This document shows, in pieces, positions 198 to 54,288 of a stretch of DNA of 64,000 nt. Source of the stretch: a virus (taxonomy: Duplodnaviria; Heunggongvirae; Uroviricota; Caudoviricetes). Both the position numbers and the translations under genes were made by a program. The stretch spans positions 1-64,000 of the IMG/VR virus record IMGVR_UViG_3300021963_000025; one strand, given 5' to 3'. The notes beneath the pieces were generated by a model. It saw nothing but the letters and a program-made list of their open reading frames with translations, was not told the origin of the DNA and did not search any database. Within the stretch, counting starts at the first letter, position 1. Every line of letters begins with the position of its first letter.

Positions 198-1322
198 ATG
201 GAAAATCAAAATTCAGTTTGCTACATAGCAAAAATCAACGAAGTAAGGGCAATCGAAGGAGCAGATAACATCGAATTAGTTATCGCAGGTGGATGGAATG
301 CCATTACAAAGAAAGGTGAATATAATGTCGGAAATGCAGTGATAATTGCAACAACTGATGCAGTTATCCCAGAATCACTTTCTGAATCTATGGGAGTAAC
401 TAATTACTTAAGAAAGGGTAATAGAGTACGTACTGTAAAATTACGTGGAGTCTACTCAGAATGTTTAATCATTCCAGGAAACTATCTTAAGGCTAAATTT
501 TTAGTTGAAGGTGCCGACTGTATGGAAGCACTTGGTATTACTAAATACGAGCCACCAGTTAAACAAGTACAATTGGCATCTGGTAGAAAAATCAAATGGA
601 GAGATAACCAAAACTTCCATATCTACTACAAGTTTCCAAACTTGAAAAATGTAGCCGGAATGTTTACCCAAGAGGATGAGGTTCAAATCACCAGAAAAAT
701 CCACGGAACAAATGCCAGATTTGGTATTGTAAAGAAATCTAAATTGACCTTTATGGACAAAGTAAAGAAATTCTTTAGAATTGCTGACGAATGGGTTAAT
801 TATGAGTACATCTACGGTTCTCATAACTGTGAGAAAGGTTCTGACTCTCAAGGATTCTATTCAACTGACGTTTGGAGAACAATCGCAGAAACTTATGGTA
901 TCAAAGAAAGACTTTGGAACCAGGCTAAAAAATACAGTGCTGAAGATTTGGGTTCTGGATTGGTTCTTTATGGAGAAATCTATGGAGCAGGAATTCAAAA
1001 GAACTATGAATATGGTTTAACTGACATCAAGTTTGTTGGATTCGATATTACTGTAAATGGAGAATATTTAGCACCAGAAACTACTCATTTGGTAACTTCT
1101 TGTGATTTAGAACTTCCGCATGTAGAGGTACTTTACAATGGACCATGGTCTCAAGAGGTACAAGACGGCTATGTATTTAATAACTTCATTGAAGGTTCTA
1201 AAGTACCACATGAGGGAATTGTAATCAAACATGTATCTGGTGAGAGAAAGAAAGTAGCGAAGGTTATTAACCCAGACTACTTAATTTACGGTGAAAAGAA
1301 TAACGTAGGAGATTCTCACTAA
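198..1322 (+). CDS. ATP-dependent RNA ligase, Rnl2/Rnl5-like (N-terminal extra domain + nucleotidyltransferase domain)
   Basis: Motif I context TRKIHGTNARFG matches the T4 Rnl2 KIHGTN adenylylation motif; GEIYGAG and EGIVIKH..KKVAKV resemble ligase motifs IV/V; the ~165-aa N-terminal domain is reminiscent of Rnl5 (DraRnl/NgrRnl) architecture. Confidence 0.65.
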   Translation: MENQNSVCYIAKINEVRAIEGADNIELVIAGGWNAITKKGEYNVGNAVIIATTDAVIPESLSESMGVTNYLRKGNRVRTVKLRGVYSECLIIPGNYLKAKFLVEGADCMEALGITKYEPPVKQVQLASGRKIKWRDNQNFHIYYKFPNLKNVAGMFTQEDEVQITRKIHGTNARFGIVKKSKLTFMDKVKKFFRIADEWVNYEYIYGSHNCEKGSDSQGFYSTDVWRTIAETYGIKERLWNQAKKYSAEDLGSGLVLYGEIYGAGIQKNYEYGLTDIKFVGFDITVNGEYLAPETTHLVTSCDLELPHVEVLYNGPWSQEVQDGYVFNNFIEGSKVPHEGIVIKHVSGERKKVAKVINPDYLIYGEKNNVGDSH

Positions 1323-1777
1323 TGGCTGTAGATTATAAAAGAGTCCTCCTAGGAATGCTAGGAGAAAAGATAGTAGCAAAACATTTTAGGGATTCCGGAC
1401 ATCAGGTCGAGGAATCCCTAAATGTCTTTGACTCGGACAAAGATATGGTAATTGATGGATATAATGTTGAGGTAAAAACAAATGCACCCCTAATTTATTA
1501 CGATTCATTCTCGTTTAAAAAGAATCAATACGATAAAATCATGAATTCACATCGAGTTTATTGGGTTTCGGTTCCGTTGCAAACACAAGAGGACAAGTTC
1601 GCTGGATGTGTTTTTGAAATGGACCCTAAGGTTGCAAAGTTACATACAATTACTTTTAACTCCGGACAAACTGCAATAGGTCTCCGTCGACAACAAGAGG
1701 GAATGAAGATAATCCATCGAATTGAAGATACTACAATATTAAAACAACTAAGGGAACTATCATCTTCATATTTATAA
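1322..1777 (+). CDS. hypothetical protein, possible PD-(D/E)xK/YraN-like nuclease fold
   Basis: ORF start overlaps upstream stop (TAATG); D-x(n)-VEVKT pattern resembles UPF0102/YraN-type endonuclease core; weak. Confidence 0.5.
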   Translation: MAVDYKRVLLGMLGEKIVAKHFRDSGHQVEESLNVFDSDKDMVIDGYNVEVKTNAPLIYYDSFSFKKNQYDKIMNSHRVYWVSVPLQTQEDKFAGCVFEMDPKVAKLHTITFNSGQTAIGLRRQQEGMKIIHRIEDTTILKQLRELSSSYL

Positions 1778-1789
1778 GATATATAGTAC

Positions 1790-2491
1790 ATGAAACGTAT
1801 TAAATTATTTGAGGAATTTATTTCTGAAGCAGAAGAAAAAGAAATAAACAAAGGCCCACTGGATAACGCCGATATTAATAAAGCACTTGATAAAAAGGCT
1901 AAAGAATCTGGAGTTCCAATAGGAATCCTTAGAGCAGTAATGCGAAGAGGAATGGGAGCTTGGAATAGTAGCCACCGCGCTGGCGTAAGTCAAGAGGCTT
2001 GGGGATATGCCAGAGTAAATGCATTCCTTGAGAAAGGTGAAGGAACTTGGCAAAATGCTGACGCTGACCTGGCAAAACAGGTTCGAGACGGCGGACATGA
2101 TAAAAAGTTACCATATAAAGTTGAAGAGTCCCTAAACGAGGCTGAAGAGACTTACAATGACTATCCAGCAGCCGCAAAGGAGAATGCAAAGAAGGCATTG
2201 GATTGGAGAGACCAGTATGGTCGTGATGAAGTAACTGCAGGTACTCCAGTTGGATGGCAGCGTGCTAATCAATTGGCAAAAGGTGAAAAACTTTCTCTAG
2301 ATGTTGTTTCCAGAATGGCACAATTTAATCGTCATAGAAAAAACTCAAAGATAGCACCAGAACATAAATCAGAGCCATGGAAGGACAATGGATATGTTGC
2401 ATGGTTAATTTGGGGAGGAGATGAAGGAGTTGATTGGGCTATGAAAAAAATGGATGAAATTAATAAAACCAAAGATAATGAAAAAAATTAA
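1790..2491 (+). CDS. hypothetical protein with N-terminal peptide MKRIKLFEEFISEAEEKE shared with next gene (possible capsid-targeting signal)
   Basis: 233-aa ORF; N-terminal 16 aa nearly identical to N-terminus of CDS 2478-3020; no recognisable catalytic motifs. Confidence 0.65.
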   Translation: MKRIKLFEEFISEAEEKEINKGPLDNADINKALDKKAKESGVPIGILRAVMRRGMGAWNSSHRAGVSQEAWGYARVNAFLEKGEGTWQNADADLAKQVRDGGHDKKLPYKVEESLNEAEETYNDYPAAAKENAKKALDWRDQYGRDEVTAGTPVGWQRANQLAKGEKLSLDVVSRMAQFNRHRKNSKIAPEHKSEPWKDNGYVAWLIWGGDEGVDWAMKKMDEINKTKDNEKN

Positions 2492-3020
2492 ACTATTCGA
2501 AGAGTTCCTAAATGAAAAGGAGAAAGTAACTTATGGTGCAAATTGCGCAATGTTATATTTTGACTTTCCAGCAATGGCAACCCTTCATCAATCGATTAAT
2601 CCTCGTGACATCTACATGGTAGAAAACAACGAGAGTTATGGACTTGAAACTGAACCACACTGTACACTTCTTTATGGAATTGAACCTCAAGTAACAGTGG
2701 ACCAAGTTGCAAAAAAACTTGAAGGAATTAAATTTGGAGAGTGTAAGGCACATAACCTTTCTCTTTTTGAAAATGAAAAATTTGACGTACTAAAATTTGA
2801 TATGGAAGGTGATAATCTTCACAATGCAAATAAGGCACTTACTGAATTACCATATAAAACGGACTATCCGGATTATATGCCCCACATGACTGTTGCATAT
2901 TTAAAACCTGGAAAAGGTTCTGAATATCTAAAGATATTAAACTCGCAAGAACATTCTCTCAAACCGCTGCATATTGTTTACAGTATGACAGACGGCTCTA
3001 AACAAAAAATAGATTTATAA
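2478..3020 (+). CDS. 2H phosphoesterase superfamily protein (LigT/cyclic phosphodiesterase-like)
   Basis: Two H-x-T-x motifs (EPHCTLLYG and MPHMTVAYL) with spacing typical of the 2H/LigT fold; start chosen at MKKIKLFEEF (2478) because of N-terminal homology with CDS 1790. Confidence 0.6.
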   Translation: MKKIKLFEEFLNEKEKVTYGANCAMLYFDFPAMATLHQSINPRDIYMVENNESYGLETEPHCTLLYGIEPQVTVDQVAKKLEGIKFGECKAHNLSLFENEKFDVLKFDMEGDNLHNANKALTELPYKTDYPDYMPHMTVAYLKPGKGSEYLKILNSQEHSLKPLHIVYSMTDGSKQKIDL

Positions 3021-4954: not shown

Positions 4955-5264
4955 CAATGTATTGATTACCGGCCACAAGCCTCGCACCTTTACCCTAAAT
5001 CGTAGGGATATACTCAAAATGGTGAGACCGGGAAGCTTTCGTAACCGCATCCAAGTGGGCAGTAGGGGATGACGAAAAGAAATAAATTGTATAATGGCGA
5101 AAATATGGAATCGGCCGATAAACATAGAAGTAGCATGTAACGAATATCCGAAAGGAGAATAACGAAGCTCAGCGGTATCAATCAAACACCTCCTCGCGGT
5201 GATACTGGAAATTAGTCATGAACCATCCGGATGGAAAGCAACTAAAACCAAGTTTGAATAATAA

Positions 5265-5335: not shown

Positions 5336-5498
5336 CAAATAATTGTAAGTATCGAAAGCCCATCCCAACGCTTGATCAGTAAGTAGGACGGTTAGTATTG
5401 AAAACATTATTAGTAAGTGGTGGAGAAATCCATGCGGAGAAAACGATGCAAGACGCAAGCACAGGGAACCAGCCCGATGGCTTTACTTACGAATATTT

Positions 5499-5569: not shown

Positions 5570-5703
5570 CAAAAAGGATGGTTGCTGCAAAAAATACAAA
5601 TTAGGCTGTTAACCTCGTGGTCGTCGGTTCGAATCCGGCCACTGCTCTTCGGAGTAGTGTAGCTCAGCTGGTAGAGCACGTACAAAAAACCCATCCTGAA
5701 TTT

Positions 5704-5784
5704 GCCCGGGTGGTGGAATTGGTAGACACACTAGACTTAGAATCTAGCGCGAAAGCATTGAGGGTTCGAGTCCCTCCCTGGGTA
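5704..5784 (+). tRNA. tRNA-Leu(TAG), class II
   Basis: gcccggg acceptor, D region tggtggaattggtagacac typical of Leu tRNAs, anticodon stem ctaga/tctag with loop cTTAGaa, long variable arm, T-arm gaggg-ttcgagt-ccctc. Confidence 0.65.
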
Positions 5785-5864
5785 CAAAATTAAAGTTAGC
5801 TTATAGTAAAGCAACCCACGTGGTAGTGGGCGAAGGGATTCAAACACCCACTTTAATTTAATTT

Positions 5865-7775: not shown

Positions 7776-7857
7776 CGAAGAAGGAGCTGTGGGTTCGAGT
7801 CCCACCTGGCCTAGCTGAAACTGGGTCGGTAGAGAAATTGGCACACTCGCCTTCGTA

Positions 7858-7931
7858 GGGGTCTTTTGTATAGCTGGTGCGTACGCTAGTCTGAAGAACT
7901 AGAGGAACAGGTTCGATTCCTGTAGGACCCA
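7858..7931 (+). tRNA. tRNA-Phe(GAA)
   Basis: Acceptor gggtctt/aggaccc, D-stem gtat/gtac, anticodon stem ctagt/actag with loop cTGAAga, T-arm acagg-ttcgatt-cctgt. Confidence 0.7.
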
Positions 7932-8114
7932 CAAACAAGTCAGTAGTCGATGGTAGACGGCTAAATTTTTTAATCATTTATGTATGGACTATCTTAGACG
8001 TAAGGTGGAAAATCATAAAGGATTAAATAGAATATGACTCTGAAAGGTCGACAAGATGAGAGTATTTAACAAGATTTAGTAGGCAGGTTCGATCCCTGTT
8101 ATGTGGCTCAAAAA

Positions 8115-8192
8115 TGCGATGTTGGTCAGAGACGGTCTCATGAGCCGTATCGGTAGATATACCCTCCAGAGGTTCAATTCCTCTAATCGCAA
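8115..8192 (+). tRNA. tRNA-like element, anticodon undetermined
   Basis: T-arm agagg-ttcaatt-cctct with acceptor tgcgatg/aatcgca (6 of 7 pairs); internal region does not give a canonical anticodon arm. Confidence 0.3.
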
Positions 8193-8197
8193 CAAAT

Positions 8198-8427: not shown

Positions 8428-8435
8428 CAAAAAAT

Positions 8436-8504
8436 AGCGAGTGAGCTCGGGATCAAGGATGGCTCATATCCGACCTTAGATTGGTTCGAATCCAATACTC
8501 GCTA
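8436..8504 (+). tRNA. tRNA-like with probable CAT anticodon (third CAT species), short D region
   Basis: Perfect acceptor agcgagt/actcgct and T-arm attgg-ttcgaat-ccaat; candidate anticodon arm gatgg-cTCATat-ccgac with one mismatch; only 69 nt. Confidence 0.45.
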
Positions 8505-8646
8505 CAAAATGATTGTATACTAGTAAAGGTAAAACTAGGTCTGCCGGTAAATCAGACGTCTAACGACTAGGTTAATGAAAGATGATGAAAGTGTCGCGAG
8601 TTAGTAATCATCATGGTTCGAGTCCCCTTACAGTCACAAAATACAA

Positions 8647-10139: not shown

Positions 10140-10148
10140 CAACAAATT

Positions 10149-10242
10149 GGAAGATTAAGCCGAAAGAGTTTGGGTACCGGCAGCGCACTTGAAATGCGTC
10201 GATCCTTTAAAGGGTGTGGGGGTTCGAATCCGTCATCTTCCG
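10149..10242 (+). tRNA. tRNA-Ser(TGA), class II
   Basis: Perfect acceptor ggaagat/atcttcc, anticodon stem gcgca/tgcgt with loop cTTGAaa, long variable arm, T-loop ttcgaat. Confidence 0.6.
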
Positions 10243-10270
10243 CGGTGAACCTTTGGTTCAAAATTAACTT

Positions 10271-10355
10271 GGAGAGTAATCTGAAGTGGTTTCAGCACTG
10301 TTTGCTAAACAGTTGGTCCGGGAAACCGGATGGGGATCGTAACCTCTGCTCTCCG
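10271..10355 (+). tRNA. tRNA-Ser(GCT)-like, class II with degenerate T-loop
   Basis: Acceptor ggagagt/gctctcc, D-stem ctga/tcag, anticodon stem actgt/acagt with loop tTGCTaa, variable arm tccgg-gaaa-ccgga; T-loop reads atcgtaa instead of ttcgaat. Confidence 0.45.
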
Positions 10356-21011: not shown

Positions 21012-21866
21012 ATGAGATTAAAATCAATTGTAGTAATTTTAGTAGTACTTTTAGGTCTATTAGGAGTTTCAAATTCATGTGAGCGTATTGATGCAGGACA
21101 TGTAGGTGTTAAAGTTAACCTTTACGGAAGTGGAAAAGGTGTAAGCGATGTAACAGAATGTACCGGATTAGTATTTTTCAATCCAATGTCAACCAAGATT
21201 TATGAATTCCCAACGTATGTTCAACATAAAGAGTATAAGAAAACTGATGAGGGAGACAATTCATTCACTGTAAATACTAAAGATGGTTCTGAATTCCATG
21301 TTTCTCCGGTAATTAACTATTCGGTACAACGTGAAAAGGTTCCAACAATATTCTCAAAATACAGAAGAACCCTGCCAGAAATTGAGGAAGGTTTCTTAAA
21401 AACTACTGTATATGATGCGTTCCGACTTGCAACTAATGCGTACACTGCCGAAGAATTAGTGTCTAATAGAGCAAACTTCGAAATCAAAGTAAGAAGCATA
21501 TTGACGGAACAGTTACAGAAGGAAGGATTTATTATTAATACATTTACATCCAACTTAGAATATCCTACGTCATTTAAGAATGCAATTAACGCCAAAAATA
21601 ATACAGTACAAGCAGCGTTACAAGCAGAAAATAAAGTAAAACAGGCAGAAGCAGAGGCAAAAATTAAAATTGCAACAGCAGAAGGTAATGCACAAGCCCT
21701 ATTAACAAATGCAAGAGCAGAAGCAGAGTCAAATAAATTGAGACAATCAACATTAACTCCGATGTTATTACAACAACAATGGATTGAAGCATGGAAACAT
21801 GGAGGTTCTCAAGTTCCTACCTACATTACTAACGGTGGTGAAAAGTTCATGATGAATATAAAATAA
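21012..21866 (+). CDS. SPFH/band-7 (prohibitin-like) domain membrane protein
   Basis: N-terminal TM, then HVGVKVNLYGSGKGVS...VSPVINYSV and a C-terminal Ala/Glu/Gln/Lys-rich coiled coil typical of SPFH proteins. Confidence 0.55.
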   Translation: MRLKSIVVILVVLLGLLGVSNSCERIDAGHVGVKVNLYGSGKGVSDVTECTGLVFFNPMSTKIYEFPTYVQHKEYKKTDEGDNSFTVNTKDGSEFHVSPVINYSVQREKVPTIFSKYRRTLPEIEEGFLKTTVYDAFRLATNAYTAEELVSNRANFEIKVRSILTEQLQKEGFIINTFTSNLEYPTSFKNAINAKNNTVQAALQAENKVKQAEAEAKIKIATAEGNAQALLTNARAEAESNKLRQSTLTPMLLQQQWIEAWKHGGSQVPTYITNGGEKFMMNIK

Positions 21867-21894
21867 AATTGTTAATAACTTTTTGAAAATAATT

Positions 21895-21924
21895 AACCTG
21901 ACATTTTACCGTGTCAGGTTTTTT
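21895..21924 (+). terminator. rho-independent terminator
   Basis: acctgac-attttaccgt-gtcaggt followed by TTTTTT. Confidence 0.55.
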
Positions 21925-21951
21925 GTTTATATTTACATTATAATTAAAACA
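21922..21951 (+). promoter_or_regulatory. conserved promoter-like cassette motif
   Basis: ttgtttatatttacattataattaaaacag upstream of CDS 21960. Confidence 0.5.
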
Positions 21952-21959
21952 GATAAATT

Positions 21960-22259
21960 ATGCAATTTAATCCACTTCATTTCACTGACAAAAACAATGA
22001 ACAAATTCAATTAGGAGACCTTGTTGAAGTAACCAAAGGTACTCATAAAGGACATGTATGTATTTTTGTATTTTGTATTCCACAACACCGTTTTGGTTTT
22101 ATGTACTTAAAATACTATCAAAAATTAGTAGAAAATAATAAAAACAACGGATACGATTTCAATATGTTTCCTGAAGATTTTGTAACAATGGATTCCAACT
22201 TGCAATTTTATTACACACCAACAAATCGTTTAGCAATTAAATCTACATTTGAAATTTAA
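21960..22259 (+). CDS. hypothetical protein
   Basis: ORF. Confidence 0.55.
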   Translation: MQFNPLHFTDKNNEQIQLGDLVEVTKGTHKGHVCIFVFCIPQHRFGFMYLKYYQKLVENNKNNGYDFNMFPEDFVTMDSNLQFYYTPTNRLAIKSTFEI

Positions 22260-22279
22260 AAATCAATTAAACTAAAAAT

Positions 22280-23215
22280 ATGAATTGTAGTTACAGAATA
22301 TTAAAAGATGTCCATATTGGACTAAGAGTACGTAAAACAAAGGACAAAACTACCGTGCCTTTTAAAAATGACCCGATGACGGGCGTAAAAATTATAAAAT
22401 GGAACCAATTAGGGTTTCAACTAAGTCACCCAGACCTACCAAAAGATATTTGGGTTGATTTCCATCAATTGCCACTTGATAGTCTTCAATTAGAATATGG
22501 AGTTATTAAGAATCCAATCACATTTGTAGAGCAAGTAATGATTGGAGGTACGATGGTCCTTGTCCGAGCCGATACTTTGGATTACATGGAAATGATACAT
22601 GACAAGAAGGAGAAGGAGGAGGCTGCAACCTACGGAGTTAAACAGTTGACTCCTGGTGATAGAGTTATTAGTGCAATATGTAAACATGGAAATGTAATGG
22701 TGTACTTAGGTACATTCAACGTTGCAACATGCGCATATTCTAGAAGTTATTCTTATGGATGGAGAAACGATGGCAAAACGTTCTACTATGTTAATGAAAC
22801 TCCTGAAAGAGCATTCTTTGCTTATGAAGACCCAGATGGAACATATAGCATTAAATCATATCCACTTCAAAACAAAATTGTCAAAGAGAATTATTTAGCC
22901 TCTGACAAGGATAAAGGCGATAGAGTAGACCCTCAATTTGCTGACGAAGAAAAAAATATGCAAATGTTATTAGATTTGTCACTAACTAGAGGATATGAAG
23001 CAAAATATCCTGTAGATAAAATGAATGAGATAAAGCAACAATACCCTAAAATGAAACTTGGAGGTTATGACTCTATTTGTTATATGCAAAAAGGTAAAAC
23101 TGAAATTAGAGCGAACGCTGTTAGTTTTGTATTAGAGCATAATTTAGTAGGAACATCAGAAGTATATCTAAATAAAGAAGATGCAAATCTTGCATTTAGT
23201 AAATGGAGAAGATAA
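22280..23215 (+). CDS. hypothetical protein
   Basis: 311-aa ORF. Confidence 0.65.
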   Translation: MNCSYRILKDVHIGLRVRKTKDKTTVPFKNDPMTGVKIIKWNQLGFQLSHPDLPKDIWVDFHQLPLDSLQLEYGVIKNPITFVEQVMIGGTMVLVRADTLDYMEMIHDKKEKEEAATYGVKQLTPGDRVISAICKHGNVMVYLGTFNVATCAYSRSYSYGWRNDGKTFYYVNETPERAFFAYEDPDGTYSIKSYPLQNKIVKENYLASDKDKGDRVDPQFADEEKNMQMLLDLSLTRGYEAKYPVDKMNEIKQQYPKMKLGGYDSICYMQKGKTEIRANAVSFVLEHNLVGTSEVYLNKEDANLAFSKWRR

Positions 23216-23562
23216 AAGATATGAAAAAAACATTTTATAGAGTATGCCACAAAGAAACCCTACAAGGGTTGTGGTATACTTACTCTGGAAATTTCACAGG
23301 ATTAATTCATAATGAATTTAATTTTTGTTTGAATAACACATTAGAAATGGAGTTTGATGAAACCATAGTAGGTTGGCTATCTGCAACTGATAGTTTAGAA
23401 TCCCTATGGGTTTGGTTTACTCAAGAAGATATAAAAGAACTTCAAAAACATGGATGGTACATTCACGAATTTGAAGCCGAAGATGTTAGATTTTACGAAA
23501 GATTTCAACACTTAGTAATTAAACAAGAAACCTCAAAAGTAATTAAATTAATTGAACTATAA
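23203..23562 (+). CDS. hypothetical protein
   Basis: ORF overlapping upstream gene by 13 nt. Confidence 0.55.
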   Translation: MEKIKDMKKTFYRVCHKETLQGLWYTYSGNFTGLIHNEFNFCLNNTLEMEFDETIVGWLSATDSLESLWVWFTQEDIKELQKHGWYIHEFEAEDVRFYERFQHLVIKQETSKVIKLIEL

Positions 23563-23564
23563 TT

Positions 23565-24230
23565 ATGAGCAATAAAGATAAAAAATTCACAGATTTTGAA
23601 AATCCAATAGAAGCATTAGCAACATTAACAAAAATAATGTCAAGCCCAGGATTTGGTAGTTTCTTTGGTGGAATGCCATTCCCAGAACCTGTAGAAAAAC
23701 ACCCATACCAAAAATTAGGAGATGGGTATGAACTTCGACCGATTCCTCTTACAAAAAAACAATCTGAAAACACCAGACTTGTAGAGATGAAATATTCTCA
23801 CCTGTACCATAATGACCTTAAAGTTTCGGACTTAATCTTTCGTAAGGGCGGACTTGGAGGAACTTTTAAAGATGGGTATTGTTCTTTAATCCATTATGTA
23901 AAAACTAAAGAGCCAAAAAAGAACGATAATGGTTTTTCATTTGGAACTCACGTTATTATTAATGGACTTGGAGAAATTTGTCTAAATAAAAACTCTTCAG
24001 ATTATCCATATCACACAGGTGGACATCTTGCTTCGATTGGTAATTATATTTATGATTTGCGAACTGGAAAGGCAATTGCACCTAAAAGTTCAACAACAAT
24101 CACTGGAGCAAATTGTATCATTATTGAACATAGATATGATTGGTACGACAAAGAAGTTGCACTACCATTAGGAATCTACCGAATTGATTTTCAAACAGCA
24201 GAAATAACAAAAATGGACGAAGCAAAATAA
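23565..24230 (+). CDS. hypothetical protein
   Basis: 221-aa ORF. Confidence 0.65.
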   Translation: MSNKDKKFTDFENPIEALATLTKIMSSPGFGSFFGGMPFPEPVEKHPYQKLGDGYELRPIPLTKKQSENTRLVEMKYSHLYHNDLKVSDLIFRKGGLGGTFKDGYCSLIHYVKTKEPKKNDNGFSFGTHVIINGLGEICLNKNSSDYPYHTGGHLASIGNYIYDLRTGKAIAPKSSTTITGANCIIIEHRYDWYDKEVALPLGIYRIDFQTAEITKMDEAK

Positions 24231-24277
24231 AACTTTAACAAAATTTTAACACTCTGGATTTTCAGGATTCAGACTAA

Positions 24278-24308
24278 TTGATTATATTTACATATCTAAT
24301 TTTAACAA
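24278..24308 (+). promoter_or_regulatory. conserved promoter-like cassette motif
   Basis: ttgattatatttacatatctaattttaacaa upstream of CDS 24318. Confidence 0.5.
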
Positions 24309-24317
24309 AGAAACATT

Positions 24318-24647
24318 ATGAACAGAGGAATTATTATTTTAGTAGTTGTATTTATCGTCGGAATCATAGCATTCGATATTTCATCTTACAACCACATTGA
24401 AACCATTACCGCCAAAGTAGAAGGTAAGGAGAGAATTACCGAACAGAATGGAAAAACCATTGACTCTTATTATTTAGTATACACCGACAAAGGTACATTA
24501 AAACTGGAAGATGACCTTTTTCGTGGTAATTTTTACTCAAGCGATGTATATGGAAAACTGAGACAAGATTCTACGTACACTTTTAAAACCGCAGGTTACC
24601 GTATTGGTTACATGAGTTCTTACCCTAACATTATAGAAGTTAAGTAA
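24318..24647 (+). CDS. hypothetical protein with N-terminal TM anchor
   Basis: ORF; IILVVVFIVGIIAF hydrophobic segment. Confidence 0.55.
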   Translation: MNRGIIILVVVFIVGIIAFDISSYNHIETITAKVEGKERITEQNGKTIDSYYLVYTDKGTLKLEDDLFRGNFYSSDVYGKLRQDSTYTFKTAGYRIGYMSSYPNIIEVK

Positions 24648-24649
24648 TC

Positions 24650-24994
24650 ATGACGACTCTACACCCAACATTCGACATTCCAATGGAGTTTATTGAAAAC
24701 TCAATCAATATTGGAATTCAATTAGCCGAAGCATCTCAACGAGGAGAAAAGAAATATATCAATGATTATAGTCCAGGAAATGATTTGAAAAACATCTATT
24801 TTGTTGGAGCTGGATTGGTTCTAGACACTCGAGATGAATTTGGACAAGAAGATGTAATTACATTAAGTCACGATTCTGAATCATTCGGAAGTTTCAGTGG
24901 TGGTCCAAGAAGATTGCTGAGCATTAAAGCAATTAGAAACTTAGAAAAATTAATGCAATTGTGCGAAATTAAACATAACCCTAAAAACTGGTAA
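24650..24994 (+). CDS. hypothetical protein
   Basis: ORF. Confidence 0.55.
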   Translation: MTTLHPTFDIPMEFIENSINIGIQLAEASQRGEKKYINDYSPGNDLKNIYFVGAGLVLDTRDEFGQEDVITLSHDSESFGSFSGGPRRLLSIKAIRNLEKLMQLCEIKHNPKNW

Positions 24995-47431: not shown

Positions 47432-47516
47432 AATCGGTTGGTGTAAGATCTGGAGTTCCAGGCGATGGTAACATGGGCGGCCCGGTGCTGCTATGATAAG
47501 GGTTCGAATCCCTTAC
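47432..47516 (+). tRNA. tRNA-like element (perfect acceptor and T-arm, core unresolved)
   Basis: 7-bp acceptor aatcggt/accgatt and T-arm aaggg-ttcgaat-ccctt; 85 nt; no canonical anticodon arm found. Confidence 0.3.
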
Positions 47517-47769
47517 CGATTTCAAAAATAAAACGGCTCTGCAGGGCTAGGGGAGGTTTGGTTAAAGCTGTACGGTACAAGCACGAGGTTCGAATCCTCG
47601 CTCTCTACTAAAAACTACTTGAGTAGGTGGGAGTGGTCAATCAACAACCCACTGAAGTTTCAGGTAAACCAATATGACAAGCGGGAAGTAGTACTGCCTA
47701 GAATACAGTAAGGGTACAGTTAATGATTTTTTTAGAAGGATTGAATAGTTTTTAACATTAACGAATGGT

Positions 47770-47862
47770 GTCAGGTGGAGGAATTGGTAAACTCTCGCTT
47801 CAAGGTGCGGTTAGTCAACGAAATGTAAAGCTAACTTACAGGTTCGAATCCTGTCCTGACCA
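47770..47862 (+). tRNA. class II tRNA-like, possibly tRNA-Leu(CAA)
   Basis: Leu-type D region ggaggaattggtaaactc, loop ttCAAgg, variable arm gttag...ctaac, T-arm acagg-ttcgaat-cctgt, acceptor 6/7 bp; irregular anticodon stem. Confidence 0.4.
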
Positions 47863-48016
47863 CAATGAGTTGATTACTCAGATGGATTCATCTGTCCTTA
47901 AAGATGACGACATACTCTTGGGCGTGAGGCAAGAGCGTTATTTGAAATTCGGTTTTAACGATATTAAGAATCGAGCTCGGAAGGCAACATATTTCGTGAG
48001 GTTTAATCAGCCATAA

Positions 48017-48108
48017 TTGCAAACGGTCAGGTGGCGGAATGGTAAACGCACTCATTGTGGAATTTTCCTAATAAAGCTGAGAGATTACAGGTTCGAATCC
48101 TGTCCTGA
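48017..48108 (+). tRNA. class II tRNA-like paralogue with degenerate anticodon region
   Basis: Perfect acceptor ggtcagg/cctgacc, D region gcggaatggtaaacgc, 3' 30 nt identical to the 47770 element; anticodon arm not foldable. Confidence 0.35.
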
Positions 48109-48132
48109 CCACAAACTTTAAAATTTAAAATA

Positions 48133-52183: not shown

Positions 52184-52360
52184 ATGGAAGATTTATTAAA
52201 TCAAATTGTAGAAACTGTTGACTCTATTAGAGTAGACGCTGCTAAATTTGAAGAAAAACAAAATGGCGCTGCTGGAACAAGAGTTCGTAAAGCAATGCAA
52301 ACTATTAAGACCTTAGCACAAGATGTGAGAACTCATATCTCTGAAGCTAAGAATGCTTAA
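52184..52360 (+). CDS. histone H1-like/Hc1-type small DNA-binding protein
   Basis: 58-aa basic protein with AAKFEEKQNGAAGTRVRKA motif, typical of small histone-H1-like proteins of Bacteroidetes and their phages; not in supplied track. Confidence 0.45.
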   Translation: MEDLLNQIVETVDSIRVDAAKFEEKQNGAAGTRVRKAMQTIKTLAQDVRTHISEAKNA

Positions 52361-52408
52361 AAACAAAATTAGGTTCCTTACAGCAAATTAATTCTATAAG
52401 GAAACTGG

Positions 52409-52448
52409 TGTCGAAAGACGTGTAGGTTCGAGTCCTACCTCTCCAACA
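52409..52448 (+). tRNA. orphan tRNA 3' half (variable arm + T-arm + acceptor 3' strand)
   Basis: gtc-gaaa-gac mini-helix, T-arm gtagg-ttcgagt-cctac, then ctctcc-a; no complementary 5' acceptor upstream. Confidence 0.35.
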
Positions 52449-52466
52449 AAGTTATAAAACATTCGG

Positions 52467-52500
52467 AGAGTGGTGAAATTGGTAGACACACCGGTCAAAA
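52467..52500 (+). tRNA. orphan tRNA 5' half (acceptor 5' strand + class II D-arm + start of anticodon stem)
   Basis: ggagag-tg-gtgaaattggtagacac-a-ccggtc; ggagag is complementary to the ctctcc located 20 nt upstream. Confidence 0.35.
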
Positions 52501-52640
52501 GAACATGGAACCTGTTAAAATATTTTAAAGGATACGTTCAGCAAATTACCAAACTTTGACTTTTACTCAAACCATAAAGTTATCCTGTAAATTTAAAATG
52601 CTTAAAACCGATGATATATACATAAAATATCACCGTAAAA

Positions 52641-53159
52641 ATGGCAATCGTATATCAACATAAAACTATTAAAGACGGTACAATATTCTATATAGGAATA
52701 GGTACAAAAATTAATAGAGCATACCATTTTAAAAATCGAAGTAAATTTTGGAAAGATTTTACCAAAAACCATGAATTTGAAGTTGAAATATTGTATGAGA
52801 ACATTTCATATAATGAAGCTAAAGAAATTGAAAAATCATTAATACTTTCATTAGGTAGAAAAGATCAAAATAAAGGAAATTTAGTAAATCAAACTGATGG
52901 AGGAGATGGGACTCTTGGAGTTATTAGAAATCATTCAAAAGATACTAAATTAAAAATAAGTGCTAATAATGGAATGCACAATGAATCTGTTAAAGAAAAA
53001 CATAAAAATTCTTTAAATAGACCAGAAACAAAACAAAAGCAGAGATTAGCAAAGTTAGGCGTACCTAGAAAAAGAATTTTATGTACAAAATGTAATAATG
53101 AAATCTCTGACAATAATTATACAAGGCATATAAATGTCTATTGTAAGCAAAATAGCTAA
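52641..53159 (+). CDS. GIY-YIG homing endonuclease (third copy, divergent)
   Basis: N-terminal VYQHKTIKDGTIFYIGIGTK...N GIY-YIG motif; basic C-terminal DNA-binding region. Confidence 0.65.
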   Translation: MAIVYQHKTIKDGTIFYIGIGTKINRAYHFKNRSKFWKDFTKNHEFEVEILYENISYNEAKEIEKSLILSLGRKDQNKGNLVNQTDGGDGTLGVIRNHSKDTKLKISANNGMHNESVKEKHKNSLNRPETKQKQRLAKLGVPRKRILCTKCNNEISDNNYTRHINVYCKQNS

Positions 53160-53400
53160 GGATGTAATAACATCTGAAACCGATTCGCGTTCAAGGTGAA
53201 GTAACAACGTGCGGGACTATGTAATAGTAGTTGAGTCTTTTAGAACAAGACATAAAAGAATTCGAAACCTCCATACTCTGGAAAGTTACCATTGAAGGTG
53301 CTATCGGTGACCTTCTAAAACCAAAATGGTGTCTCGGTCCGCTCTGAAGCAATTCAACGACGAGGTCTCGGTAGGCAGAAGGCCTCTGACCTATCCACAA

Positions 53401-53429
53401 AAAGAAAGGGACCTTACGGTCCCTTTTTT
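53401..53429. terminator. bidirectional rho-independent terminator
   Basis: gggacc-ttac-ggtccc flanked by an A-run 5' and a T-run 3'; sits between convergent genes 52641(+) and 53428(-). Confidence 0.65.
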
Positions 53430-54288
53430 AATTAAATAAAAATAGCCAGAGATAAAATAATACGGTTAGAGAAATAACTCCAATACCAACCCAATAAAAT
53501 ATCGAATCAATCATTGGTGTATAATTTTTACTAGAAGTTAATATTGGAACTTGGGCTTTAAAGGTATTTAAGTGAGCCTTTAAACCGAACTTTGCTGTTT
53601 TTCTACCATTCCAGTTTTTACCCATTGTTACAAGTTTTTCACTATCAATATGAATTGAAATAATTTCAGGTAGTAGTTGTCTTTTTGCTCTTGGAAATAA
53701 TTTTGCAAAAAGTACATCAGAACGGTCAACAGAACCATGCTCTTTTGGATATTCAGTTACTCCAGAGCCTTTAGGATTCCACATTTGAAAAAATCCAATT
53801 GGTTCCCATCCTTTATTCTTGTATTCTGCGATTCGTACTCCTAATGGAAATGCGGTAGTATGAACGTAAATCCAACCTTCATGCAATGGTGATGGGTTAT
53901 CAATAAAATCCATCCAGTCTCCATAAGTAGGACACATCATTCTGTCGATTCCATATAGGGTTTGGTCGTCAAGTTCAAGATTCTCAAGAATTGAACGAGT
54001 AAGCGGTGGTAAATAAATGTCAGCATCTAAATGTACAACCCATCCGTCTCCGTCTAGGTGTTTTAGACCCTCATTAATTCCTTTTCCTTTGTTTATGGTG
54101 TTTCCATTTTCATAGAAAGCGTCAGTTTGAACACATTGTACGTTATAGTATTCACACAATTTTTTTGTTTCCAAATCTTTTGTGTCAGTGACAATAACTA
54201 TCCTGTTAAAGTGATTTTTGTTATGGGGTAGGGTATGTGCTAAAAAATCACTATAATTAACACAAACTACAACGGCTTCGATTTTCAT
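53428..54288 (-). CDS. GT-A-like glycosyltransferase with C-terminal TM anchor (only minus-strand gene in window)
   Basis: VVCVNYSDFLAHTL and HLDADIY (DxD) motifs; C-terminal hydrophobic helix. Confidence 0.55.
   Translation of the reverse strand: MKIEAVVVCVNYSDFLAHTLPHNKNHFNRIVIVTDTKDLETKKLCEYYNVQCVQTDAFYENGNTINKGKGINEGLKHLDGDGWVVHLDADIYLPPLTRSILENLELDDQTLYGIDRMMCPTYGDWMDFIDNPSPLHEGWIYVHTTAFPLGVRIAEYKNKGWEPIGFFQMWNPKGSGVTEYPKEHGSVDRSDVLFAKLFPRAKRQLLPEIISIHIDSEKLVTMGKNWNGRKTAKFGLKAHLNTFKAQVPILTSSKNYTPMIDSIFYWVGIGVISLTVLFYLWLFLFN

Follow-up and report, generated by a model that had tools for sequence, protein, structure and literature searches.

A permuted tRNA-Leu-like element within a 143-nt module

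A 64,000-nt stretch of a tailed-phage genome (Caudoviricetes; IMG/VR record IMGVR_UViG_3300021963_000025, positions 1 to 64,000; hereafter the window) carries, at 52404-52495 on the plus strand, the two halves of a tRNA-Leu-like sequence in permuted order. The 3' half, made up of a variable hairpin, the T arm, and the acceptor 3' strand, comes first; 18 nt further on follows the complementary 5' half, with the acceptor 5' strand, the D arm, and an anticodon-stem strand. An open reading frame (ORF) for a homing endonuclease begins at 52641, 145 nt downstream. The original prediction for this locus read the halves either as a circularly permuted tRNA gene or as the scar of an endonuclease-driven rearrangement. 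The permuted order that it described is present here and conserved in relatives, but the unit is larger than was then thought: the halves form the body of a 143-nt module, termed E1, at 52371-52513 (+). The extent of E1 follows from end-to-end conservation in the related loci L001, L002, L003, L005, L014, and L051, from helix pairing counts, and from matches to a covariance model, R1.

All parts of E1 lie on the plus strand. The module begins with the 5' strand of a terminal helix, P1 (AGGTTCC, 52371-52377), and ends with its partner GGAACCT (52507-52513), which is followed by GUU in keeping with the family consensus of ...CCU then GUU. Immediately after the 5' strand of P1 stands the motif UUACAGCAA (52378-52386), which is single-stranded, is invariant in the E1 clade, and is the part that the Rfam family RF01414 aligns to the motif of the Dictyostelium Class I RNAs. 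The remainder of the 5' internal loop, J1 (52387-52403), is A/U-rich, varies in length and sequence among relatives with U33 at no fixed register, and ends in CTATAAGGAA, which looks like a decayed anticodon loop. The tRNA-like body opens with the anticodon-stem 3' strand ACTGG (52404-52408), a single T (52409), the variable-arm hairpin GTC-GAAA-GAC (52410-52419), and, after GT, the T arm GTAGG-TTCGAGT-CCTAC (52422-52438). The acceptor stem (52439-52470) comprises the 3' strand CTCTCCA (52439-52445), the 18-nt linker ACAAAGTTATAAAACATT (52446-52463), and the 5' strand cGGAGAG (52464-52470). After TG come the D arm GTG-AAATTGGTAGA-CAC (52473-52489), which is of tRNA-Leu type, an A, and the anticodon-stem 5' strand CCGGT (52491-52495). 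The 3' internal loop J2, CAAAAGAACAT (52496-52506), is A-rich, as it is in all modules, and leads into the 3' strand of P1.

The D arm of E1 differs by one base from that of the window's genuine tRNA-Leu(TAG) at 5704-5785, the variable arms have the same form, and the 3' half matches annotated phage tRNA-Leu genes with 92-100% identity over 30-40 nt. Judged by these matches, the body is tRNA-Leu-like and not Ser-like, which leaves the Leu side of the class II Ser/Leu-like body first proposed. As it stands, E1 is called as a tRNA by neither ARAGORN nor Rfam. ARAGORN does call one once the halves are joined artificially, with almost any anticodon depending on the chosen join. The acceptor stem has six of its seven pairs in the window, where C1.A72 is mismatched, and all seven in relatives, where U1-A72 is found.

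The fold is conserved and co-varies across lineages

The exact 5' half of E1 is found in seven IMG/VR contigs; the order of the halves is permuted in all seven, and the aligned conservation spans 52371-52513. Because the arrangement turns up again in 11 related viral contigs, and also in other lineages whose stem sequences differ and co-vary, it lies beyond chance. Changes on both sides of a helix occur within the clade in four helices: P1, which reads AGGTTTC/GAAACCT in L003 and L014 (pair 6/142, C-G to U-A); the variable arm (GTC/GAC to ATC/GAT); the D stem (GTG/CAC to GCG/CGC, in L014); and one pair of the acceptor stem. The predicted complementarity of the ggagag and ctctcc acceptor strands is present in the window, and these strands co-vary across lineages. 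The CCGGT/ACTGG pairing, also foreseen, is kept in relatives as well: the anticodon-stem strands show one-side changes only within the clade (CCGGT, CTGGT, and CTAGT against ACTGG or ACCGG), always with pairing retained, and read GTGAT/ATCAC or TTGGA/TCTGA in other lineages. Overall, 98.6% of the cells in the clade alignment are paired, and its covariation score was reached by 0 of 500 shuffles.

We also searched with a pattern that required nothing more than a T loop and, 25-55 nt after it, a Leu-type D loop, and obtained 78 loci. At about 20 of them, an acceptor 3' strand precedes a complementary 5' strand of unlike sequence (TCTCCCC/GGGGAGA, TTACTAA/TTAGTAA, CCTAATG/CATTAGG, ACTTCCC/GGGAAGT, and TCTGGAG/CTCCAGA), with no ARAGORN tRNA at these sites; the rest are ordinary tandem tRNAs. 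The model R1, built from the window's clade alone, finds modules of unrelated lineages, with E-values from 1e-17 to 1e-8. In a set of 33 modules drawn from many lineages, 96.3% of cells are paired, both-side changes occur in 28 of 30 pairs, and the covariation score is 0.696 against 0.186 in shuffles; this alignment was fitted to the model, and its pairing counts are inflated by that. Sliding the partners leaves 38-45% of cells paired. All seven pairs of P1 and all seven of the acceptor stem co-vary across these modules, and the T arm is 100% paired across the family.

The acceptor stem is usually sealed. In L051, the closest relative and one that has the same endonuclease, only a loop of about 4 nt is left of the linker, and acceptor loops of 4-7 nt are found in L051, L024, L034, L036, L078, L140, a second module of the window (E3, with a UUCG loop), and most of the family. 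Free acceptor ends are therefore not what selection keeps.

Sister modules present other tRNA parts on a common handle

The terminal stem and its adjoining motif, which we refer to as the handle, recur in sibling modules with different cargo. E2 (52529-52586, +), 16 nt downstream of E1, joins the handle AGGATA...TATCCT and UUCAGCAA to an anticodon stem-loop, TTTGA-CTTTTAC-TCAAA (52555-52571), that is Lys UUU-like; the same scaffold holds a GUA (Tyr-like) loop in L002 and L005. E3 (5575-5697, +; R1 match of 35.9 bits) sits inside the main tRNA array of the window, in the gap between tRNA-Pro and tRNA-Leu. Its handle is AGGATGG...CCATCCT with CUGCAA, and its body is tRNA-Asn(GUU)-like, permuted at 26/27, with the acceptor closed by the UUCG tetraloop. 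Orthologues of E3 adjoin E1 and E2 in L001, L002, L003, and L005, where the motif is C(A/U)GCAA and the anticodon arm is intact.

A search for helices of 7 bp or more whose 5' strand is followed within 0-4 nt by CAGCAA finds hundreds of modules in phage tRNA regions. Their handle consensus runs ...AGG-N4, 2-3 nt, CAGCAA, an A/U-rich stretch, the cargo, an A-rich stretch, N4-CCU, and then GUU, and the cargo ranges from bare anticodon stem-loops to whole closed tRNA mimics. Short modules measure 51-67 nt, and 60 of 76 contain a hairpin in which a 5-bp stem closes a 7-nt loop. These loops are anticodon-like (UUU, UCU, CAU, UGU, GUA, GUU, UCC, and UAG), at frequencies biased by a picking score that favoured U33 and R37. 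The same handle thus carries cargo that can never become a tRNA, which argues that E1 is not a permuted tRNA gene. We considered CAGCAA as a promoter or other repeated signal within the window and rejected this; the window has only two handle copies, a count not above that in shuffles, and the significance of the motif comes from relatives.

Handle modules also occur in cultured phages, namely Bacillus phage PJN02, the FelixO1-like Escherichia coli phage Alf5, and the P100-like Listeria phage LP-064, where they are unannotated or lie under doubtful coding sequences. The hypothetical coding sequence Alf5_044 of Alf5 (L170 7363-7686), on the minus strand, overlaps two handle modules on the opposite strand. 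In PJN02 (L079, record 21793-24828), a tRNA region with 13 tRNAs and at least five handle modules is unannotated. The LP-064 tRNA region (L171 3471-4022) contains a ROOL-like RNA (87 bits against a gathering score of 99), and an environmental phage (L037, 11406-11957 and 13062-13126) has a transfer-messenger RNA (tmRNA), a twister-P1-like match, and at least eight handle modules. We found no prior description of such a family in the literature on phage permuted tRNAs, DUF2828, or phage tRNA-like RNAs; the handle RNAs are apparently a large phage RNA family that has so far gone undescribed and whose members mostly adjoin a gene for a Ro60-like RNA-binding protein, and they account for unannotated or mis-annotated gaps in phage tRNA clusters.

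Handle arrays are linked to genes for Ro60-like proteins

Some permuted Leu-type RNAs that lack CAGCAA directly adjoin TROVE/Ro60 genes in L019, L078, L027, L043, and L056, and these are ordinary YrlA RNAs. Arrays with the CAGCAA handle adjoin genes for proteins with DUF2828 and DUF7788 domains in L017, L037, PJN02, Alf5, and LP-064. When we fetched 80 IMG/VR loci with a DUF2828 protein, 74 had at least one handle on the strand of the gene; the handles numbered 212 on the same strand and 15 on the opposite strand, compared with 4-11 (about 9) in shuffles. These 80 loci are mutually related (at least 70% identity) and not independent of one another, and the independent evidence for the linkage is its recurrence in five distant phage groups.

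The DUF2828-vWA protein is Ro60-like by several tests. [quoted passage not shown] Relatives of this protein number more than 7,900 in one search, and the family is present in FelixO1-, P100-, and mycobacteriophage-type phages. In LP-064, the DUF2828 gene is followed by genes for RtcB and an RNA ligase, an order that echoes the bacterial rsr-yrlBA-rtcBA operon, and three handle modules lie 75-340 nt upstream of the DUF2828 gene. In the related Listeria phage CKA15, three non-coding transcripts of very high abundance map within the 2 kb upstream of the Rsr-like gene, and the authors of that study suspected them to be Y RNAs (PMC12282133).

Likeness to known RNAs

In layout, E1 matches the YrlA Y RNAs (RF02553; Chen et al. 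2014, PMC4201824), tRNA mimics bound by Ro60 through a terminal stem and motif, which consist of a 5' motif, variable arm, T arm, closed acceptor stem-loop, and D arm, with a 3' end that pairs with the 5' end. E1 shares with them the paired ends (its P1, in which 7/7 pairs co-vary), a conserved single-stranded motif after the 5' strand, and the order of the tRNA-like domains from variable arm to D arm. Like the handle family, YrlA RNAs occur in phages and have a Ro60-family protein with a HEAT ring and a vWA domain as partner. The candidate partner in relatives, however, belongs to the DUF2828-DUF7788 branch and is not an annotated TROVE protein, and the handle RNAs further differ in forming arrays inside tRNA clusters, in their interchangeable cargo, and in having no partner gene in this window. 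A phage Ro60 is known to bind Y-like RNAs with a 5'-3' stem and bulge motif (PMC12135203). The RNAs concerned, Yrl1 and Yrl2 of Thermus phage phiLo, resemble the handle RNAs in being phage-encoded and in having a 5'-3' stem that flanks a large bulge with a short conserved motif; unlike E1, they carry a CGAA motif and adjoin a TROVE gene, and tRNA-like cargo is not reported for them (PMC12135203).

An unexpected and close likeness is that of the handle to the Class I RNAs of Dictyostelium (Kjellin et al. 2021, PMC7919456; Rfam RF01414). Among Rfam families, RF01414 alone matches the short phage modules, full-length at 27-36 bits; the E1 handle scores 19.6 bits, and none of these matches reaches the gathering score of 41.5. 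What defines a Class I RNA is a 6-bp stem between its two ends, a conserved motif of about 11 nt by the 5' strand, termini conserved as AAG and CUGU, and a middle part that varies; such RNAs are reported to be unique to Dictyostelia, with candidates accepted at a covariance-model score of at least 25 together with the stem (PMC7919456). In the Rfam RF01414 consensus, the ~11-nt motif reads CCUUACAGCAA. Like the handle RNAs, they have a short end-joining stem that starts with ...AG and ends with CU-GU, and the motif (C)CUUACAGCAA after its 5' strand; like the short phage modules, they have a variable remainder, a length of about 60 nt, and low G+C. E1 itself has this layout, as A-GGUUCC-UUACAGCAA-AUUAA...GGAACC-U-GU. 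Class I RNAs differ in being eukaryotic, in having Dictyostelium upstream sequence element (DUSE) promoters about 60 nt upstream, in being bound by the RNA recognition motif protein Rnp1A, and in having no known tRNA-like cargo, whereas the handle RNAs are found in phages, with the same handle in E. coli, Listeria, and Bacillus phages. Motif and layout together tie the handle RNAs to the Class I RNAs.

E1 as a probable YrlA-like tRNA mimic

We consider it probable that E1 is a single 143-nt non-coding RNA derived from tRNA-Leu, a YrlA-like tRNA mimic that has a distinct handle and is not matured to a decoding tRNA. In its conserved fold, the T, D, and variable arms take the form that they have in a tRNA, the acceptor stem is bridged by the linker rather than open, and the anticodon stem leads into an internal loop instead of an anticodon loop. 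The 7-bp P1 between the 5' and 3' ends closes this internal loop, with UUACAGCAA single-stranded directly behind its 5' strand. The handle may be a protein-binding site, as GGUCCGA or CGAA suggests by analogy from Y RNAs; a Ro60-like protein, encoded elsewhere in the phage or by the host, might hold it in the infected cell, while the tRNA-shaped cargo would recruit or sequester a tRNA-binding factor. Candidates for that factor are an RNA-repair ligase, RNase P, a modification enzyme, a synthetase, or a host tRNA-cutting defence nuclease.

Several observations weigh against this assignment, in addition to the mutual relatedness of the DUF2828 loci and the fitted alignment mentioned above. YrlA RNAs have the motif GNCGAAN0-1G (CGAA) at the position where E1 has (UUA)CAGCAA, UUACAGCAA, and the Rfam YrlA model RF02553 does not match E1 at E ≤ 10; another handle module (L141 1388-1503) scores 30.8 bits against its gathering score of 69. 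No TROVE or DUF2828 gene was found among the window ORFs (local hidden Markov model searches, 64 kb) or in about 14 kb around the orthologous loci, so that E1 is linked to this partner by family only. That search covered the window, which is ~2956-66955 of a 92.7-kb source contig, with the remaining 26 kb outside it. The minimum-free-energy fold of E1 is not significant by itself (z = -1.45). Finally, the linker, which is 17-18 nt long and A/U-rich in the clade, keeps the 'A-CAAA' trailer of the phage's genuine tRNAs, so that cleavage by RNase P and 3' processing is possible.

A broader reading, which we put forward tentatively and regard as doubtful at present, takes the stem and UUACAGCAA handle as the mark of a widespread class of Y-like RNAs with which phages would present tRNA parts on a Ro60 paralogue of DUF2828 type, so as to bait or monitor enzymes that target tRNAs. 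The Dictyostelium Class I RNAs would share this handle, and hence a DUF2828/Ro60-like partner, by descent or transfer. Equally tentatively, and as part of the same reading, the phages concerned would be FelixO1-like, P100-like, large Bacillus, and environmental ones, and the parts displayed would be bare anticodon stem-loops, closed tRNA bodies, and whole closed tRNAs.

The mimic could also act alone. In a stand-alone decoy, the handle would serve only to stabilise and process the RNA, and the tRNA body and anticodon loops would themselves be the bait for host defence nucleases that cut tRNAs, with no Ro60-like protein involved. The window contains no Ro-like gene, and the cargo anticodon loops are often UUU, UCU, CAU, GUA, or GUU, the targets of known anticodon nucleases. 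We nevertheless think a stand-alone decoy unlikely, given that the handle-DUF2828 linkage is strong and strand-specific in several unrelated phage groups and that a conserved single-stranded motif by a terminal stem is the signature of a protein-binding site; the picking score, moreover, biases the loop statistics in favour of U33 and R37.

YrlA of Mycobacterium smegmatis is cut by RNase P and receives CCA (PMC4201824), which raises a further alternative: RNase P and a 3' nuclease could open the 18-nt linker of E1 in the same manner. The product would be a two-piece tRNA-like RNA with its strands held together by P1 and the anticodon and acceptor stems, possibly CCA-extended and charged by leucyl-tRNA synthetase, which ignores the anticodon. 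The A/U-rich linker of 17-18 nt, U1-A72, A73, and the natural trailer, all kept in most of the clade, would suit such processing. L051, a member of the same clade, has lost the linker, however, the window has the C1.A72 mismatch, and tetraloops are found elsewhere in the family; nor is a function apparent for a charged RNA that has no anticodon. On balance, this two-piece RNA seems quite improbable.

A genuine tRNA-Leu gene of the circularly permuted kind is less probable still, and very unlikely. In that case the leader and trailer would be cut, the ends ligated into a circle (for example by the phage RNA ligase at 198-1322), and the linker removed by RNase P and 3' processing to leave a decoding tRNA. 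The permuted tRNA genes of Cyanidioschyzon merolae, some green algae, and Thermofilum pendens do share with E1 a 3' half placed upstream of the 5' half on the same strand, complementary acceptor strands, a short linker, and pairing between leader and trailer. E1 also has all of the tRNA arms, its linker opens with a trailer like those of the phage's genuine tRNAs, and near the tRNA array the phage has genes for an RNA ligase and a 2H phosphoesterase. The algal and archaeal genes, however, are matured through a bulge-helix-bulge, a splicing endonuclease, and a circular intermediate into a normal tRNA with an anticodon loop. At the leader and trailer of E1 we find no bulge-helix-bulge but a plain 7-bp helix and an asymmetric 26/11-nt internal loop, and no two 3-nt bulges separated by 4 bp. 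Joining the halves likewise fails to give a 7-nt anticodon loop that has U33 and a conserved anticodon, since close relatives vary in both the length and the register of their loop-side sequences (CTATAAGGAA, CTATAGGA, and CTATAAGAA). Nor is there a removable linker across the family, where it is often a tetraloop, is about 4 nt long in L051, and measures 4-7 nt in most members. The handle, in addition, carries cargo that is unable to become a tRNA, and the phage already has three conventional tRNA-Leu genes. With the acceptor closed by a 4-7-nt loop in the closest relative and most of the family, and with no conserved anticodon loop, a decoding tRNA is unlikely, and E1 is most likely not a tRNA gene.

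We give hardly any credence to debris, that is, two tRNA pseudogene fragments or a junction of neighbouring tRNAs rearranged by the adjacent homing endonuclease: although that ORF lies 145 nt downstream and tandem tRNAs can mimic a T-arm-then-D-arm order (L008, L026, L063, and L069), the acceptor strands are mutually complementary and co-vary, no flanking tRNA halves were found, and the arrangement is identical in relatives without the endonuclease. The last of these points also disposes of the endonuclease-scar reading, because L001, L002, L003, L005, and L014 lack the endonuclease and carry the same module with compensatory changes. Comparison with such relatives had been expected to reveal an intact tRNA and shows the same permuted order instead.

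Other candidates were rejected as well. An attP site or tandem-tRNA junction is ruled out by the acceptor complementarity and the lack of flanking halves. The two-piece tmRNA from permuted ssrA (RF04321) resembles E1 in having a permuted tRNA-like domain in one bacterial or phage transcript, but E1 lacks a tag reading frame, Ala identity (G3.U70), and pseudoknots; we find no conserved reading frame that would make it a permuted tmRNA or tag-coding loop, and neither ARAGORN nor Rfam reports a tmRNA.

The YrlA-like mimic that we favour replaces a tempting false positive, since a phage with a permuted tRNA gene would have been without precedent. In its place stands a testable proposal, drawn from sequence comparisons, that phages encode arrays of small RNAs that may present tRNA-shaped modules on a common protein-binding handle. 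The very abundant and uncharacterised DUF2828-vWA proteins thereby gain a candidate RNA partner and a genomic signature. If the tRNA-part cargo does act on tRNA-cutting defence or RNA repair, it would add a new layer to the conflict between phage and host over tRNAs.

Genomic surroundings

Directly upstream of E1, at 52184-52360 (+), lies a gene for a 58-aa Hc1 histone H1-like protein (Pfam E = 1.6e-19), a type typical of Chlamydia and Bacteroidota that hints at the host. Downstream, the ORF that starts at 52641 matches PHROG 314 ('homing endonuclease') and has no Pfam match; by eye its N terminus resembles GIY-YIG proteins, a family to which no tool result assigns it. The stretch from the endonuclease stop to the next RNA (53160-53325, +) is structured, G+C-richer, and conserved with L051, with compensatory hairpin changes, and is possibly part of the mobile endonuclease cassette; where relatives lack the endonuclease, they have tRNA-Leu(TAA) and E3 in its place. 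That next RNA, E4 (53326-53400, +), is a conserved two-helix RNA without an Rfam match that ends the cluster in all relatives, with the compensatory changes TCTCG/CGAG to TCTTG/CAAG and GGTAGG/CCTATCC to GGTTGG/CCAACC. A group I intron with its endonuclease inside a split tRNA was also considered for this region and rejected; no Rfam intron is found at E ≤ 10, and the 'degenerate second 3' half' downstream is the separate RNA E4. A hairpin with a T-run at 53405-53432 (+), conserved in relatives, probably ends the transcription unit of E1, E2, the endonuclease, and E4.

Elsewhere in the window, ARAGORN finds tRNAs for all amino acids but Ser. This gap is only apparent, because two apparent, non-canonical tRNA-Ser genes with the loops CTTGAAA and TTGCTAA lie at ~10148-10340 (+), just past the last ARAGORN tRNA. 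We had considered E1 as the missing tRNA-Ser and rejected this, its body being Leu-type and tRNA-Ser(UGA) and tRNA-Ser(GCU) being apparently encoded at that site. Between tRNA-Tyr and tRNA-Phe, at 7777-7858 (+), a T arm, closed acceptor, and D arm occur without a CAGCAA handle (partial R1 match of 28.4 bits). The tRNA array also has long G+C-rich gaps (4956-5264, 5337-5495, 7933-8197, and 8429-8646, +) with T-loop-like motifs and hairpins and no Rfam or ARAGORN call. Just upstream of the array, 198-3020 (+) encodes the RNA ligase (PF09414 with a PHA02142 OB domain; 198-1322) and the 2H phosphoesterase/Acb1-like protein; an AAA_33 kinase-like protein of the same RNA-repair-type gene set lies just outside the window (L161 2383-2766). 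At 47432-48111 (+), finally, there is a cluster of aberrant tRNA-like genes called by Rfam and not by ARAGORN, in one of which the D loop carries a 24-nt insert, while in two the anticodon loop is replaced by 23-35 nt; a mini tRNA-like element of about 65 nt lies at ~47535-47610.

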